Source of the DNA: a virus
Length of the DNA: 10,501 bases
UHGV virus genome: UHGV-0105382
Strand: one strand, 5' to 3'
In this document: piece after piece, positions 3,802 to 10,451 of the stretch
How the letters are laid out: each line of letters opens with the position of its first letter
Position numbering within the stretch: the first letter of the stretch is position 1
Notes under the pieces: model-generated
What the model was told of the DNA's origin: nothing
The model's input: only the letters and a program-made list of their open reading frames with translations
Databases searched by the model: none
Position numbers and translations under genes: made by a program

Positions 3802-4727
3802 TGACTTTTACCAGCGAACAATTAGCTACCTTACGTAAGATAGCGCAACAGGCAACACAGGGCGAATGGCGTGCATTCATCTCGCCGGACACTGGTACAT
3901 ATGCGGTGCATACGCCGGGGGATGAACGTTGCGGAGACATTATCAAATGGCCTGGCTTTGACGACCAGAAAAATGCAGAGAACAACGCAGAATTTATCGC
4001 AGCTTTCAACCCTAAATTAGTGCAGACACTGCTGGATGAACGGGAAAGAAACCAGCAATACATCAAATCACGCGACCAGGAGAACGAGGATATTGCGCTA
4101 ACGGTAGGGAAGCTGCGCGTTGAGCTTGAGGAGGTGAGAGCAAAACTCAATGAACAACGCGAGTATTACGAGGGAGTAATCGCGGATGGAAGGAAGCACA
4201 TAGCAGAACTGGAAAAACAATGCGCCGAATGGGAGCGAAAAGCATTAAGCAACTTTGAAGAGTGTGCTGCGATGGCTGAACGTATCGAAGAGATGCAGAC
4301 AAAATCTGCACCAGATTCGTTTGGCATCATCGGTGAAAATATTCGAACACAGGATAATCGAATAACGTCAGATCCTATGTTTTGTGTGTATCAAAAGCGC
4401 GAAATCGTTGTTGATGCTGATTATGACTATGACCGGATTGTCTGGGTTGATGAAGATGGCAATGAAGCCAATAAACTCCAAAGTCGTCGTCTCGAACTAC
4501 TTCATGAAAACTTTCGGGAGCCACCAGAAAAATGGCGGCGCGTTGCTGTGAAAGATATTGATGAATTCGTTACCTGCTGTTTCACCGAACAGGGTTGTAA
4601 AGACTACCTGGCAGCCAATGGTCACAATCTTCGCTTGCCATTTATATATGTAAAAAGCGGTTTCAGGAACGCTGAATATATCGGCATAAGAAACTGGCTT
4701 GCTGGTATTCGCATCAAAGGAGACTGA
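3798..4727 (+). CDS. Ead/Ea22-like protein, long form (309 aa) with coiled-coil middle and distinct Cys-containing C-terminal domain
   Basis: GGGAGA at 3785-3790, ATG at 3798 overlapping the previous stop (ATGATGA). N-terminal module (EQLATLRKIAQQATQGEW ... NNAEFIAAFNPKLVQTLLDERER) is paralogous to the preceding gene. The track's GTG start at 3771 is less likely. Confidence 0.7.
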   Translation: MMTFTSEQLATLRKIAQQATQGEWRAFISPDTGTYAVHTPGDERCGDIIKWPGFDDQKNAENNAEFIAAFNPKLVQTLLDERERNQQYIKSRDQENEDIALTVGKLRVELEEVRAKLNEQREYYEGVIADGRKHIAELEKQCAEWERKALSNFEECAAMAERIEEMQTKSAPDSFGIIGENIRTQDNRITSDPMFCVYQKREIVVDADYDYDRIVWVDEDGNEANKLQSRRLELLHENFREPPEKWRRVAVKDIDEFVTCCFTEQGCKDYLAANGHNLRLPFIYVKSGFRNAEYIGIRNWLAGIRIKGD

Positions 4728-4728
4728 T

Positions 4729-4938
4729 ATGGCTATTGCCGCAAGTTACACCATGCATCTCTATTGTGATTGTCGCCAGTGTACGGAAGGTGTATATCCA
4801 GTGCCAGACTTCGGTGAGTATATCGGTACGTCATGGTCTGGTTGTGCAAAAGAGGCCCGTAAAGACGGGTGGCGAATAAGCAAAGACAAAACACGTACTT
4901 TTGCGCCCGGGCATAAAGTTTTGAGGATTAACACATGA
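4729..4938 (+). CDS. Hypothetical Cys-rich small protein (69 aa, C-x-C-x2-C ... C; possible zinc ribbon)
   Basis: AAGGAGA at 4717-4723, ATG at 4729. Stop overlaps the next start (ATGA at 4935-4938). Motif HLYCDCRQC plus a later WSGC. Confidence 0.55.
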   Translation: MAIAASYTMHLYCDCRQCTEGVYPVPDFGEYIGTSWSGCAKEARKDGWRISKDKTRTFAPGHKVLRINT

Positions 4939-5708
4939 CCACTATTACCAAAGAACGTATTGAATTGTTCATTAAAAATCCGCTTGAAAACGGGCTTACT
5001 CGTGGCGAACAAATGGAACTGGCACGAATTGCACTGGCATCACTGGAACGCGAACTGATTCGCCACGAGCATGCCAAATGGTCTGACTCCACATTTGGCT
5101 GCGTTGGCCCCATTGGTCCACTGAAACACCTCTCAAAAGAGGCTCTGGAAGCCGCAGCCGAACCAGACGATCTCAGCGAGTGGGCTGATATGCATTTCCT
5201 GTTGTGGGATGCACAGCGCCGTGCTGGCATCAGCGATGCTGAAATTACCGCTGCTATGGAAGATAAATTGAAGATCAACATGGAGCGCCAGTGGCCTGAA
5301 CCAAAAGATGGTGAGCCTCGCTTGCACATTAAAGAACCCGGCAACTCTCCGGTAATTCCGGATGGTTTATCCACGGTATGCGCTGAGGCTTATCAGGTTG
5401 TAGGAGTTATGGCAGATGCGCTTGGTGTATTCGGTGATGCAGCAGTACAGAAAGTTCTGGATAACCTGTCACAGCAAAAACTTGTTCACAGAGATGTGCT
5501 GCCGTTCTCGCTTCCGGTAACTCCGGATGGTTGGATAAGCTGTAGTGATCGAATGCCGAACGACGCGCAGTGGTGCGTAGTGAACACAGAATACGGGTAT
5601 TACGTGCAATGCTGGTCTGAAGGTCAAGGGTGGCTTGGTGATGATATCAGCATCCCTAAATGCGATGTAATCAATTGGATGCCTCTACCAGAACCGCCGC
5701 AGGGGTGA
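4935..5708 (+). CDS. Two-domain prophage protein: N-terminal DUF550-type (dATP/dGTP pyrophosphohydrolase-like) domain and C-terminal DUF551 domain
   Basis: GAGGA at 4923-4927. The C-terminus (GWISCSDRMP...WCVV...DVINWMPLPEPPQG) matches the DUF551 signature as I recall it (W..[SC].DRLP ... W ... HWMPLPEPP). The N-terminal half (EWADMHFLLWDAQRRAGISDAEITAAMEDKLKINMERQWPEP) resembles the MazG-like pyrophosphohydrolase domain often fused to DUF551. Family names are from memory. Confidence 0.7.
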   Translation: MTTITKERIELFIKNPLENGLTRGEQMELARIALASLERELIRHEHAKWSDSTFGCVGPIGPLKHLSKEALEAAAEPDDLSEWADMHFLLWDAQRRAGISDAEITAAMEDKLKINMERQWPEPKDGEPRLHIKEPGNSPVIPDGLSTVCAEAYQVVGVMADALGVFGDAAVQKVLDNLSQQKLVHRDVLPFSLPVTPDGWISCSDRMPNDAQWCVVNTEYGYYVQCWSEGQGWLGDDISIPKCDVINWMPLPEPPQG

Positions 5709-5774
5709 AATGATGCTTGGCCTGAAGTATTTTATGTAATTGGTATTGCTATATTTTTATCTGGGGATAAACGA

Positions 5775-6017
5775 ATGTTCTCTCTGATTCAACGTGGTCA
5801 GATATACACCGATAGCGCTGGCTATCCAGTAAAAATCATTCGTAGTACTGATCACTCAGTATTCTTCAAGAGGATGGATGGCTATCCTGGAAGAGTGTGC
5901 ATCAGAAAATTCAATAATTTATTCGAACACATTGATCACAGAGAATATCACCAGATCCTGGCTGAAACAGAACAGGAGAACCATCTGAAAAAATTACGTG
6001 CTATGCAAAGGAGATAA
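5775..6017 (+). CDS. Hypothetical small protein (80 aa), possibly DUF4222-like
   Basis: GGGGA 7 nt upstream of the ATG. The pattern IQRGQIY.D..GYPVKII...DHSVFFKRMDGYPGRVCIRKF resembles small prophage proteins I recall under DUF4222; the family call is low confidence. Confidence 0.55.
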   Translation: MFSLIQRGQIYTDSAGYPVKIIRSTDHSVFFKRMDGYPGRVCIRKFNNLFEHIDHREYHQILAETEQENHLKKLRAMQRR

Positions 6018-6097
6018 ACCGGTAAAGGTGTTCGCGATAAAGGTGAATATCGGCAATGAATAACAATCCTCGAACTCGCGGGGATTTCTTTTATCTG

Positions 6098-6122
6098 AAC
6101 TCGCTACGGCGAGTTTTGTTTT
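6098..6122 (+). terminator. Putative intrinsic terminator (7-bp stem AACTCGC / GCGAGTT, loop TACG, then TTGTTTT)
   Basis: Seen in sequence: perfect 7-bp inverted repeat followed by a U-rich tract, about 80 nt after the 5775..6017 stop. Confidence 0.4.
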
Positions 6123-6135
6123 ATGGAGATGATAA

Positions 6136-6303
6136 ATGCACTTCCGAGTCACAGGTGAATGGAATGGAGAGCCATTCGACAGGGTTATCGAAGCAGAGGA
6201 CATCAACGACTGCTATAACCACTGGATGATATGGGCGCAGATAGCGCATGCAGACGTAACCAATATTCGAATTGAAGAACTGAAAGAACACCAAGCCGCC
6301 TGA
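6136..6303 (+). CDS. Hypothetical small protein (55 aa)
   Basis: Not in the supplied track (under 60 aa). GGAG at 6125-6128 seven nt before the ATG. Translation MHFRVTGEWNGEPFDRVIEAEDINDCYNHWMIWAQIAHADVTNIRIEELKEHQAA. Stop codon lies in the loop of the next terminator. Confidence 0.45.
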   Translation: MHFRVTGEWNGEPFDRVIEAEDINDCYNHWMIWAQIAHADVTNIRIEELKEHQAA

Positions 6304-6316
6304 TGGCGGTTTTTTC
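6293..6316 (+). terminator. Putative intrinsic terminator (stem GCCGCC / GGCGG(T), loop TGAT, then TTTTTT)
   Basis: Seen in sequence: GC-rich 5-6 bp stem followed by T6, directly upstream of the cII-box/xis region. Confidence 0.55.
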
Positions 6317-6352
6317 TTGCGTGTAATTGCGGAGACTTTGCGATGTACTTAA
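6317..6352 (+). promoter_or_regulatory. pI-like cII-dependent promoter (TTGC-N6-TTGC box overlapping the xis start)
   Basis: TTGC at 6317-6320 and 6327-6330 with a 6-nt spacer, the direct-repeat architecture of lambda cII sites. The surrounding sequence (TTGCGTGTAATTGCGGAGACTTTGCGATGTAC) matches what I recall of the lambda pI/xis region. Confidence 0.5.
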
Positions 6353-6561
6353 CACTTCAGGAGTGGAACGCACGCCAGCGGCGCCCAAGAAGCCTTGAAA
6401 CAGTTCGTCGATGGGTACGCGAGTGCAGGATATTCCCTCCTCCGGTTAAGGATGGAAGAGAGTATCTGTTCCACGAATCAGCGGTAAAGGTTGACTTAAA
6501 TCGACCAGTAACAGGTAGCCTTTTGAAGAGGATCAGAAATGGGAAGAAGGCGAAGTCATGA
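6343..6561 (+). CDS. xis: Excisionase Xis (lambda-type, 72 aa)
   Basis: Translation MYLTLQEWNARQRRPRSLETVRRWVRECRIFPPPVKDGREYLFHESAVKVDLNRPVTG... is essentially the lambda Xis sequence as I recall it. GGAG at 6331-6334. 3' end overlaps the int start as in lambda. Confidence 0.95.
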   Translation: MYLTLQEWNARQRRPRSLETVRRWVRECRIFPPPVKDGREYLFHESAVKVDLNRPVTGSLLKRIRNGKKAKS

Positions 6562-7612
6562 GCGCCGGGATTTACCTCCTAACCTTTATATAAGAAACAA
6601 TGGATATTACTGCTACAGGGACCCAAGGACGGGTAAAGAGTTTGGATTAGGCCGAGACAGGAGGATAGCAATCACTGAAGCTATACAGGCCAACATTGAG
6701 TTACTCTCAGACAGCGGACGCAAATCACTGATAGACAGAATTAAAGGCGGTGACGCAATCACTCTTCATGTGTGGCTTGACCGATATGAAAGAATCCTCA
6801 CCGAAAGGGGGATCAGGCCGAAAACTCTACTCGACTACGCCAGCAAAATCAGGGCAATCCGAAGAAAATTGCCGGACAAACCGCTCACTGACATATCAAC
6901 GAAAGAAGTGGCAGCAATGCTAAACACCTACGTAGCAGAAGGTAAAGCAGCTTCCGCAAAATTAATCAGGTCAACCCTTGTTGACGTTTTTCGTGAAGCA
7001 ATAGCCGAGGGGCATGTGGCAACGAATCCGGTAACAGCAACCCGTACAGCAAAGTCAGAAGTAAGGCGCTCAAGGCTGACAGCTAATGAGTATGTCGAGA
7101 TTTACCATGCAGCCGAACCTCTCCCTATCTGGCTAAGGCTGGCGATGGATTTGGCCGTCGTTACAGGGCAGAGAGTCGGCGATTTGTGCAGAATGAAATG
7201 GTCAGACATAAACGACAACCATCTTCACATTGAACAGAGTAAAACAGGGGCTAAACTCGCCATTCCGCTAATGCTAACGATTGACGCGCTCAATATCTCA
7301 TTGGCTGATACACTACAGAAATGCAGGGATGCCAGCAGCAGTGAAACTATAATCGCATCAAAGCATCACGATCCGCTTTCCCCGAAAACAGTATCAAAGT
7401 ATTTTACAAAGGCGAGAAATGCATCTGGACTCTCATTTGATGGAAACCCGCCAACATTCCATGAACTGCGTAGCCTGTCAGCGAGGCTATACCGGAACCA
7501 GATTGGCGATAAGTTTGCTCAACGTCTTCTCGGGCATAAATCAGATTCAATGGCGGCGCGGTATAGGGACAGCCGTGGACGGGAATGGGACAAAATTGAA
7601 ATCGACAAATGA
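6539..7612 (+). CDS. int: Tyrosine integrase, lambda Int family (357 aa)
   Basis: N-terminal arm-binding domain matches lambda Int (MGRRRSHERRDLPPNLYIRNNGYYCYRDPRTGKEFGLGRDRRIAITEAIQANIEL). Catalytic residues are placed as in lambda (VVTGQRVGDL, HELRSLSARLY, LLGHKSDSMAARYRD, C-terminus REWDKIEIDK). The central core-binding region differs from lambda. Confidence 0.95.
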   Translation: MGRRRSHERRDLPPNLYIRNNGYYCYRDPRTGKEFGLGRDRRIAITEAIQANIELLSDSGRKSLIDRIKGGDAITLHVWLDRYERILTERGIRPKTLLDYASKIRAIRRKLPDKPLTDISTKEVAAMLNTYVAEGKAASAKLIRSTLVDVFREAIAEGHVATNPVTATRTAKSEVRRSRLTANEYVEIYHAAEPLPIWLRLAMDLAVVTGQRVGDLCRMKWSDINDNHLHIEQSKTGAKLAIPLMLTIDALNISLADTLQKCRDASSSETIIASKHHDPLSPKTVSKYFTKARNASGLSFDGNPPTFHELRSLSARLYRNQIGDKFAQRLLGHKSDSMAARYRDSRGREWDKIEIDK

Positions 7613-7706
7613 TTTTATTTTGACTAATAATGACCTGCTTACATTAATTCATTGATAATAAAAGAGATTTCAAATATACAACTTATTCACCTTAAGTGCA
7701 CCGACC
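7613..7706. other. attL-like region: tandem arm-type Int sites, IHF consensus, then the phage/host junction (exact core not determinable)
   Basis: The reverse complement of 7613-7640 reads AGGTCATTATTAGTCAAAATAAAA, close to lambda P'-arm sites (GGTCACTATCAGTCAAAATAAAAT as I recall). The reverse complement of 7644-7656 is TATCAATGAATTA, matching the IHF consensus WATCAANNNNTTR at the position of lambda H'. Confidence 0.6.
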
Positions 7707-10451
7707 GTGAATTTAACCCTGACCCGAAGACTCTGGATGGGCTTTGCCCTGATGGCGCTGTTAACCCTGACCAGTACCCTGGTGGGATGGTACAACCTGC
7801 GCTTTATCAGCCAGGTGGAAAAAGACAACACTCAGGCATTGATTCCTACCATGAATATGGCGCGCCAGTTGAGCGAAGCCAGCGCCTGGGAACTTTTCGC
7901 CGCGCAGAACCTGACCAGTGCCGATAACGAAAAGATGTGGCAGGCGCAGGGGCGAATGCTCACCGCACAAAGCCTGAAGATTAATGCGTTGCTGCAAGCA
8001 TTACGGGAACAAGGTTTTGATACCACCGCTATTGAACATCAGGAGCAGGAGATCTCCCGTTCGTTACGTCAGCAAGGGGAACTGGTGGGACAGCGTTTGC
8101 AACTGCGCCAGCAACAACAGCGACTCAGTCAGCAGATAGTCGCCGCCGCCGATGAAATCGCACGCCTGGCGCAAGGTCAGGCGAATAATGCGGCAACTTC
8201 CGCCGGAGCGACCCAGGCCGGGATTTACGATTTGATCGAACAACATCAGCGTCAGGCCGCAGAAAGTGCACTCGATCGGCTGATTGATATCGATCTTGAG
8301 TATGTTAACCAGATGAATGAACTGCGCCTTAGCGCCCTGCGGGTGCAGCAAATGGTGATGAATCTGGGGTTGGAACAGATCCAGAAAAATGCGCCAACGC
8401 TGGAAAAGCAGCTCAATAATGCGGTGAAAATTCTGCAACGTCGGCAAATACGCATTGAAGATCCGGGAGTTCGTGCTCAGGTCGCAACAACGTTAACTTC
8501 CGTTAGCCAATATAGCGATTTGCTGGCGCTGTATCAGCAGGACAGTGAAATCAGCAATCGCCTGCAAACTCTCGCCCAAAATAACATCGCCCAGTTCGCG
8601 CAGTTTAGTAGCGAAGTCAGTCAGTTGGTCGACACCATTGAGCTGCGTAATCAGCACGGACTGGCGCATCTGGAAAAAGCCAGTGCACGCGGGCAATACA
8701 GCCTGTTATTGCTGGGGATGGTTTCACTTTGCGCACTGATTCTGATCCTCTGGCGCGTGGTTTATCGCTCAGTCACGCGTCCACTTGCCGAACAAACGCA
8801 GGCGCTGCAACGGCTGCTGGACGGTGATATCGACTCCCCTTTTCCGGAAACCGCTGGCGTGCGGGAGCTGGATACCATCGGGCGGCTGATGGATGCGTTT
8901 CGCAGCAGTGTTCATGCACTGAATCGCCACCGCGAACAGCTGGCGGCGCAGGTCAAAGCGCGTACAGCTGAATTGCAGGAGCTGGTGATAGAACACCGAC
9001 AGGCACGGGCGGAAGCAGAAAAAGCCAGCCAGGCAAAATCGGCGTTTCTGGCGGCGATGAGCCATGAGATCCGCACACCGCTGTACGGTATTCTTGGCAC
9101 CGCGCAACTGCTGGCAGATAACCCCGCACTTAATGCCCAGCGTGATGATTTGCGGGCAATTACCGACTCTGGTGAATCGTTGCTGACCATCCTCAACGAT
9201 ATTCTCGATTATTCGGCTATCGAAGCAGGCGGCAAGAATGTTTCGGTCAGCGATGAACCCTTTGAACCGCGCCCGCTGCTGGAAAGTACCCTGCAATTAA
9301 TGAGCGGAAGGGTGAAAGGTCGCCCGATTCGCCTGGCAACAGAAATTGCCGACGATGTACCGACTGCGTTAATGGGCGATCCGCGGCGTATTCGTCAGGT
9401 CATTACCAACCTGTTGAGCAACGCCCTGCGTTTTACTGACGAAGGACAGATCGTTTTACGTAGCCGCACTGATGGCGAGCAATGGCTGGTCGAAGTGGAA
9501 GACAGCGGCTGCGGTATTGATCCCGCGAAACTGGCTGAAATCTTCCAGCCATTTGTTCAGGTTAGCGGCAAACGCGGCGGCACCGGGCTGGGGCTGACCA
9601 TCAGTAGCCGTCTGGCCCAGGCGATGGGCGGCGAACTGAGCGCCACCAGCACGCCGGAAGTTGGAAGCTGTTTTTGTTTACGCTTGCCGTTACGTGTTGC
9701 CACTGCACCCGTGCCAAAAACAGTCAATCAGGCGGTGCATCTGGACGGTTTACGTTTGCTGTTAATTGAAGATAACCCGCTAACCCAGCGAATTACCGTT
9801 GAGATGCTGAACAACAGTGGGGCGCAGGTCGTTGCGGTAGGAAATGCCGCGCACGCAATAGAGACGTTGCAAAATAGCGAACCGTTTGCTGCCGCACTGG
9901 TGGATTTTGATCTGCCCGATATCGACGGCATTACGCTTGCCCGGCAACTGGCACAGCAATATCCGTCGCTGGTTTTGATTGGCTTTAGCGCTCATGTCAT
10001 CGACGAAACGTTGCGCCAGCGTACCAGTTCATTATTTCGCGGGATTATCCCTAAACCGGTGCCGCGTGAAGTGCTCGGTCAGTTACTGGCGCACTATCTC
10101 CAACTGCAAGTCAATAACGATCAACCGCTGGATGTATCGCAACTCAATGAAGATGCTCAGTTGATGGGGACGGAGAAGATCCACGAATGGCTGGCATTAT
10201 TTAAACAACATGCCCTGCCGCTTCTCGATGACATCGGCATCGCCCGCTCCAGCCAGAACAGCGAAAAAATAAAGCGTGCCGCACATCAGCTAAAAAGCAG
10301 TTGCTCGAGTCTGGGAATGCGTAGCGCCAGCCAGCTATGCGCACAACTGGAGCAGCAGCCATTATCTGCCCCCCTTCCACACGAAGAAATTACACGCAGT
10401 GTTGCCGCTCTGGAAGCATGGTTGAATAAGAAAGACCTGAACGCGATTTGA
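7707..10451 (+). CDS. torS: TMAO-responsive hybrid sensor histidine kinase TorS (914 aa from the GTG at 7707; 904 aa if started at the ATG at 7737)
   Basis: Translation matches E. coli TorS as I recall it ([22 protein letters not shown]...). Two transmembrane segments flank a periplasmic domain, followed by an H-box ([11 protein letters not shown], His codon 9063-9065), G-boxes (DSGCGI, GGTGLGL), a receiver domain (LLIEDNP; Asp codon 9903-9905 in [10 protein letters not shown]) and a C-terminal HPt (AAHQLKSS, His codon 10284-10286). Counting from the internal ATG these residues are His443, Asp723 and His850, the phosphorelay positions as I recall them for TorS. Confidence 0.95.

Follow-up and report, generated by a model that had tools for sequence, protein, structure and literature searches.

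A small ORF just upstream of an excisionase gene, bracketed by terminator-like hairpins, raises the question whether it is an independent accessory cassette or one station on a longer transcript. Such an ORF is found in UHGV virus genome UHGV-0105382, of which a stretch of 10,501 nucleotides was analysed (the window; all positions refer to it). The original prediction had described an ORF of 55 codons with a good ribosome-binding site between two stem-loops with U-tracts, the second of which contains the stop codon, and had read this as the architecture either of a moron or of a transcript whose read-through requires antitermination. A direct repeat in the leader was regarded as a possible attenuator. 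The ORF and its ribosome-binding site were found as described, and the two bracketing structures (6097-6122 and 6293-6318) were recovered both by a consensus scan and by folding. The features of the locus are collected in Table 1.

Table 1. Features of the window around orf55
Feature	Position	Strand	Basis
Upstream operon gene, 80 aa, DUF4222	5775..6017	+	Pfam PF13973 (E = 2.6e-15); PHROG 285; RefSeq annotation; replaces lambda ea8.5
Predicted tL4 terminator, hairpin 6065-6086 and TCTTTTAT	6065..6094	+	scan; fold; alignment to HK022 and 434 features; t3 of lambda in PMC4195576
Predicted second tandem terminator, hairpin with C(UACG)G tetraloop, then TTTTGTTTT	6097..6122	+	scan; fold; t4 of lambda in PMC4195576
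Shine-Dalgarno GGAG of orf55	6125..6128	+	read from sequence, 7 nt before the ATG; ribosome-binding site annotated in OL657226 and OM418625
orf55, 55 aa, lambda orf55 family	6136..6303	+	database identity; 434 annotation; PHROG 676; pN/pS; AlphaFold2
Predicted t'I terminator, core stem CCGCC/GGCGG, loop UGAU, then TTTTTTCTT	6293..6318	+	scan; fold; alignment to 434 position; t5 of lambda in PMC4195576
Putative CII-binding box and -35 region of pI, TTGC-N6-TTGC	6317..6330	+	read from sequence; same motif annotated as CII site and pI in OL657226
xis, excisionase, 72 aa	6343..6561	+	Pfam PF07825 (E = 3.9e-41); RefSeq annotation
int, tyrosine integrase, 357 aa	6539..7612	+	Pfam PF00589 and PF09003; annotations; prophage end next, host torS from 7707

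The prophage and its leftward early operon

A 1-kb stretch of the locus is 100% identical in four complete Escherichia coli chromosomes, among them that of strain 165 (NZ_CP020509). In the latter the prophage genes follow each other on one strand in the order ral, a gene annotated as TolA, cIII, kil, a gene for a Rad52-like recombinase, ssb, an exonuclease gene, an anti-RecBCD gene, several small ORFs, the DUF4222 gene, the 55-aa ORF, xis and int. Host torS comes after int, and the prophage is integrated beside it. Further upstream, on the strand of the operon, lie cII, cro and the gene of a LexA-family repressor (cI). Beyond the repressor gene a terminator, a promoter-like site (TTGACC...TAAATT), a boxA-like GCTCTTTAAC, the hairpin TCCCGC-CGAAAT-GCGGGA and the gene of a 101-aa protein are found in turn. 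This protein is arginine-rich, with the N-terminal stretch NARNRRRARRQAQRE; it is annotated as hypothetical only, and against the Pfam N-peptide family it scored 18 bits, below the threshold of 27.9. Judged by position and motif, the promoter-like site, the boxA- and boxB-like elements and the 101-aa protein are probably pL, nutL and an N-type antiterminator, the nutL assignment having been made by inspection of the sequence by eye. The interval 4489-4800 of locus L110 (NZ_CP020509, upstream of the window) probably holds a divergent N/nutL pair.

In Megablast against phage records the region matched lambda, HK022 and 434 collinearly over the distal part of their pL operons and through xis and int, at 95-97% identity. 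For HK022 the homology begins at about 6013, for lambda only at about 6060. A gene of the CII family is present in the same prophage, and the first two T of the TTGC-N6-TTGC box in front of xis belong to the T-tract of the preceding hairpin. Very probably, then, the segment belongs to a lambdoid prophage of E. coli and forms the distal part of its leftward early (pL) operon, in which orf55 and three intrinsic terminators precede the excision and integration genes. Against this reading count the sub-threshold score of the N-like protein, the weakened tL4 of the window and the lack of scan-detected terminators around a more distant orf55 homologue (see below). The predicted need for antitermination is supported by the identity to the three phages, by the annotation of the hairpins as tL4 and t'I, and by the occurrence of cI, a pL-like promoter, a nutL-like site and an N-like protein upstream. 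The cassette is common: about half of the complete E. coli genomes contain a match (2698 of 5426), and at least 80% of the cassette is present in 2181.

One uninterrupted ORF of 257 aa occupies 4935-5708 of the window (+ strand), with a dATP/dGTP pyrophosphohydrolase domain at residues 42-137 and a DUF551 domain at 199-256. RefSeq annotates the identical sequence as a partial ead/Ea22-like pseudogene and a separate DUF551 protein; the annotations disagree.

The hairpins around orf55

The scan for terminator and promoter consensus sequences covered 5000-8000 on both strands and was compared with shuffled sequences. Ten terminator-like sites were found, against 2.5 +/- 2.1 in the shuffles. Three sites on the + strand flank orf55, beginning at 6065, 6097 and 6293, and the top-listed + strand site is among them. 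The first consists of AATCCTCG-AACTCG-CGGGGATT, followed by TCTTTTAT. Because this third hairpin (6065-6086) is positioned directly upstream of the one already known, the leader appears to carry two tandem terminators instead of one. The direct repeat GAACTCGC (6072-6079 and 6097-6104) is indeed present, and its first copy forms the loop and the 3' arm of the hairpin that had been missed. The second hairpin, GAACTCGC-TACG-GCGAGTTT at 6097-6116, runs into TTTTGTTTT up to 6122 (the tract was given as TGTTTTAT in the scan). It folds at -11.9 kcal/mol, with z = -4.3 relative to shuffles and a helix probability of 0.995; for the leader that holds both hairpins z was -3.7. On the other side of the gene, AAGCCGCC-TGAT-GGCGGTTT at 6293-6312 is followed by TTTCTT, the T-run extending to 6315 with two more T at 6317-6318. 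In isolation this hairpin folds at -12.4 kcal/mol, and its segment has z = -3.0 relative to shuffles. The last three codons of orf55 constitute its 5' arm and, as predicted, the stop codon (TGA, 6301-6303) lies inside its loop. All three hairpins have a G+C-rich stem, a loop of 4-6 nt and a T-tract on the transcribed strand, which is the geometry of intrinsic terminators. They are read as intrinsic (Rho-independent) terminators with considerable confidence; termination and read-through in this prophage we infer.

Across loci, the tL4 position holds at least four distinct hairpin sequences, all joined to one TTTCTTTTATCT tract, with the stems kept and the loops varying. Most loci have AATCCTCGC-NNNN-GCGGGGATT with the loops ACTC, ATTC, ATTT or AATA. 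Others have AACCCGC-CGAGT-GCGGGTT, CCGC-TTAAT-GCGG, AAACCTCG-CACCGT-CGAGGTTT, in which a T:A pair has undergone a compensatory change to A:T, or the 434 form with U-A for U-G, and a few loci are without any hairpin at this position. Owing to a C-to-A change the stem in the window is weaker, at -9.7 kcal/mol in place of -13.1. A recognizable copy of hairpin 2 occurs in every locus examined. Its changes are mostly one-sided with the pairing kept (A or G opposite U; C-G to U-G), and a few single loci lose one pair or have a shorter 3' arm. The hairpin at the end of orf55 shows one-sided changes only. Its core CCGCC/GGCGG is intact in 46 of 46 loci in which pI and xis come next, against 40 of 55 in other contexts; the pattern fits selection for a terminator immediately 5' of pI and xis, and the contrast between these counts could instead reflect linked haplotypes or shared ancestry. 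Structure that is kept while the sequence changes is seen in the variety of tL4 hairpins, with the one compensatory pair, and in the independent t'I of 434. Together with its T-run, the t'I hairpin travels with the 3' end of orf55, and immediately beyond the T-run homology is lost, the sequence passing into at least five different downstream contexts. Another prophage has an orf55 homologue of 75% identity, and on neither side of it was a terminator detected by the scan. The hairpins are therefore punctuation of the operon and are not tied to the function of orf55 itself.

It could be argued that the hairpins are mainly joints for mosaic recombination (boundary sequences), or stabilizers of the 3' ends of processed pL mRNA, and not working terminators. 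The breakpoints of homology cluster exactly at the edges of hairpins and T-tracts (at about 6060, 6089 and 6315-6323 of the window), only 65 of the 368 records in the phage collection that match part of 6060-6320 hold at least 80% of it, and the Sf6 record annotates 'boundary sequences' in this neighbourhood. However, that unrelated hairpins are kept at the same positions, and that 434 has an independent t'I, argues for selection on the structure and not for a shared recombination sequence. The stem, loop and T-tract geometry is, moreover, canonical for intrinsic termination, and a role as joint or stabilizer could exist alongside termination instead of supplanting it. As a replacement for termination this explanation is quite unlikely.

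The distribution of the flanks, which reaches further than that of the ORF, is ordinary lambdoid mosaicism. Sf6 and Stx2 phage II have kept the leader, with its two hairpins and the ribosome-binding site, as well as t'I and the final 59 nt of orf55; between these parts the orf55 leader drives a different gene of 103 aa. ST104 has kept the leader alone, between orf6 and xis, and UAB_Phi20 and As3 only the 55-nt tail of orf55 with t'I. The last 55-59 nt of orf55 and t'I thus persist as non-coding sequence after unrelated genes in Sf6 (L111, 1264-1643), in Stx2 phage II (L114, 664-1041) and in P22-like Salmonella phages (L113 and L115), and the tail shows no difference from the window in either alignment, of 59 nt for Sf6 and of 55 nt for UAB_Phi20. 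As a discrete conserved element, for example an sRNA, the tail does not stand out: in the loci that bear orf55 it is polymorphic at 8 of 45 sites, no lower than the rest of the gene (26 of 120), and it occurs in only two independent contexts. A string that resembles a tRNA T-arm (GGTTCGATTCC) comes after orf55 and t'I in locus L029 (1669-1926) and in 23 further loci that share its downstream context, and behind it lies an ORF of 66 aa (MQHELQPDSLVDLKFIMADTGFGKTFIYDRIKSGDLP...). The string was not called as a tRNA by ARAGORN. By eye, the 66-aa ORF may be a different excisionase, of the AlpA type, in which case the orf55 module precedes a different excision module there.

orf55 and its transcription

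The product of orf55 (MHFRVTGEWNGEPFDRVIEAEDINDCYNHWMIWAQIAHADVTNIRIEELKEHQAA) is 96% identical to the commonest form in the databases. It matches PHROG 676, which is annotated as function unknown, over residues 1-55 (E = 5.4e-39) and by this similarity along its full length is a member of that family. The gene aligns with lambda and with the feature 'ORF55' of the 434 record M60848, and its place in the pL operon, just 5' of the excision and integration genes, recurs in lambda, in 434 and in a 75%-identical homologue. Conservation of the ORF in related prophages had been proposed as a check, and orf55 is a real gene: its length is 55 codons in every one of the 101 copies examined (from viral contigs, phage records and genomes), third codon positions hold 20 of its 34 polymorphic sites, and pairwise pN/pS, 0.20 in the reading frame of the gene, rises to 0.80 and 3.4 in the two alternative frames. 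Alternative ORFs were rejected because of these off-frame values and because ATG 6056 is absent in lambda. The latter would start a + strand ORF of 57 aa (6056-6229) that spans the two leader hairpins, shares part of its length with orf55 in another frame and is very unlikely to be a gene (off-frame pN/pS at least 0.8); the - strand ORFs 5994-6206, 6121-6294 and 6203-6388 were set aside on the values of 0.8 and 3.4.

The AlphaFold2 model of Orf55 has a mean pLDDT of 93.5 and a small β-β-α-β fold. A Pfam search returned no family for Orf55, and no sequence match was found between it and any solved structure. Donaldson and co-workers (PMC8614690) discussed orf55 as the last, uncharacterized ORF of the exo-xis region, and proposed Gp2 of T7, an inhibitor of the host RNA polymerase, as its structural analogue. 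This analogy proved reproducible yet appears not to be specific, and a Gp2-like action on RNA polymerase would not be supported beyond the generic fold.

Relatives of Orf55 are few. A word-indexed search gave 93 clusters, those with a named source being almost all from Escherichia, and phmmer against 1.8 billion representatives found just 52, nearly all of them near-identical Escherichia forms, besides a few small proteins of 41-57% identity. The scan of genome contigs was of no use for diversity, since it returned mostly lambda DNA inside unrelated assemblies. A lambda-type orf55, 95% identical to that of the window, is present in assemblies named Shewanella, Pseudomonas, Chromatium, Oceanobacillus, Kitasatospora and others (L006-L021). 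Several of these contigs are about 48.4-48.5 kb long and of low coverage, which looks like contamination with lambda control or marker DNA and not like real hosts. On another, short contig (L013, about 1150-1260) the first 14 nt of orf55 (ATGCACTTCCGAGT) are joined back to the lambda leader, giving a spurious frame of 66 aa, probably through misassembly or a short duplication.

In textbook accounts the lambda pL operon is read through by N/nut antitermination. What is observed in the window is the set of sequence features, their conservation, their identity with elements annotated in lambda, HK022 and 434, and that orf55 is coding; the same course is proposed here. RNA polymerase would acquire an N-type antitermination complex at nutL and read through all three terminators, so that Orf55, Xis and Int would be made after induction or infection. 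Unmodified polymerase, for instance from stray transcription in a repressed lysogen, would stop at the terminators. This would keep Xis and Int silent and leave CII-activated pI as the sole other route to int. Translation of orf55 may in addition gate the read-through of t'I: a ribosome close behind the polymerase at the UGA stop would hold the hairpin open, and the synthesis of Xis and Int from pL would then depend in part on translation of orf55 as well as on N. The two terminator-bearing flanks may, furthermore, form a portable 'socket' at which lambdoid and P22-like phages swap cargo genes, which fits the presence of orf55 in the window, of gene 19 in Sf6 and Stx2 phage II, and of no cargo in ST104. 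Jointly, gating by translation and the socket are given a low probability.

If the cassette were a moron, it would be an accessory unit with its own promoter, ORF and terminator that is expressed from the repressed prophage. Terminators do bracket the ORF, and t'I (6293-6318) could serve as its own. The flanks also behave as boundaries of a portable module, with the same leader and 3' tail around a different gene in Sf6 and Stx2 phage II and with each flank found alone in P22-like Salmonella phages, and orf55 is dispensable accessory cargo of narrow distribution, nearly all in Escherichia. A promoter, however, is lacking, as the original prediction had noted for the ORF: the scan found no sigma-70-like promoter on either strand from 5000 up to 7602, including the interval between the upstream gene and the ORF. 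The roughly 13 nt between the second T-tract and the ATG are filled by the ribosome-binding site and leave no room for one, and a promoter anywhere upstream of 6065 would meet two terminators straight away. The ORF is, besides, co-oriented and in line with the pL operon. This makes a moron very improbable.

Hardly any credence can be given to the suggested attenuator, in which the 3' arm of hairpin 2 would pair with either copy of GAACTCGC and so switch between terminator and antiterminator. The 8-nt repeat is real, and on paper the pairing is possible (the helix alone amounts to -9.6 kcal/mol), but RNA folding with this helix enforced gave -16.4 kcal/mol against -23.9 for the best fold, i.e. 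7.5 worse, with a probability of about 1e-5. Moreover, hairpin 1 is the first to form as the RNA is transcribed and locks up the first copy of the repeat, and the alternative helix would not relieve termination because it is followed by the same T-tract. The exact repeat results from a minority C-to-A variant at the apex of tL4, present in 4 of 101 sequences including the window, and is absent where other hairpins replace hairpin 1; its counterparts in lambda, HK022 and 434 are GCACTCGC, GCATTCGC and GCACTGAC, respectively. There is no conserved leader peptide either, ATG 6056 being absent in lambda, and a search of 5700-6700 against Rfam at a permissive E-value gave sub-threshold chance matches only (snoZ30, rimP leader and rsmX).

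Counterparts in lambda, HK022 and 434

The preferred reading, a distal pL operon punctuated by intrinsic terminators, has close precedents. orf55, all three hairpins and the adjacent pI/CII box are already described for lambda, HK022 and 434. The ORF and the hairpins are on record in GenBank features, in PMC4195576 and in PMC8614690. The HK022 record X51962 has a feature 'tL4 terminator', and the 434 record M60848 has the features 't-L4', 'ORF55' and 't'-I'. In the alignment tL4 corresponds to 6065-6094 of the window, ORF55 to 6136-6303 and t'I, in position, to 6293-6318. A second, recent record of 434 (OL657226) annotates a terminator that abuts a CII site and the pI promoter before xis, and cites PMID 6305007. 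For lambda, Bloch et al. (2014; PMC4195576) listed the three hairpins as t3, t4 and t5 with ARNold. The hairpins of the window thus agree in position and sequence with annotated terminators, namely the HK022 and 434 features and t3-t5 of lambda. The HK022 tL4 feature aligns column for column with 6065-6094, as does t-L4 of 434. The source behind the terminator feature of OL657226 is said to be the work of Benedik, Mascarenhas and Campbell from 1983.

Lambda (J02459) has the same ORF, from which the product in the window differs at three residues (N15D, N22D and D28N). Lambda further shares with the window the two leader hairpins, the ribosome-binding site, the third hairpin, whose loop holds the stop codon, and beyond it the CII box and the xis start. 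The upstream gene is ea8.5 in lambda, whereas the window has the DUF4222 gene instead. In the stem of tL4 the C-to-A change of the window falls at the apex and results in a 6-nt loop and a weaker stem than in lambda, and in hairpin 2 lambda has U-G where the window has U-A. The 357-aa integrase has the same length as the int product of HK022, while that of lambda is one codon shorter, and the position of the prophage next to torS is a further difference from lambda.

In the deposited segment of HK022 orf55 is missing at this place, and the match resumes at xis. The tL4 of 434 has U-A in place of U-G in its stem and a different loop. In 434, ORF114 is inserted after orf55, and the copy of the hairpin at the end of orf55 is disrupted (GGAGG). 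Its t'I is an unrelated hairpin, GCCGC-ATCAAT-GCGGC with TTTTCTT, that comes after ORF114 and directly before pI and xis. In both lambda and 434 a t'I hairpin and T-tract directly precede the TTGC-N6-TTGC CII box and xis, as in the window. Beyond correct annotation this matters little: the cassette very probably represents the ordinary, known end of a lambda-like leftward early operon.
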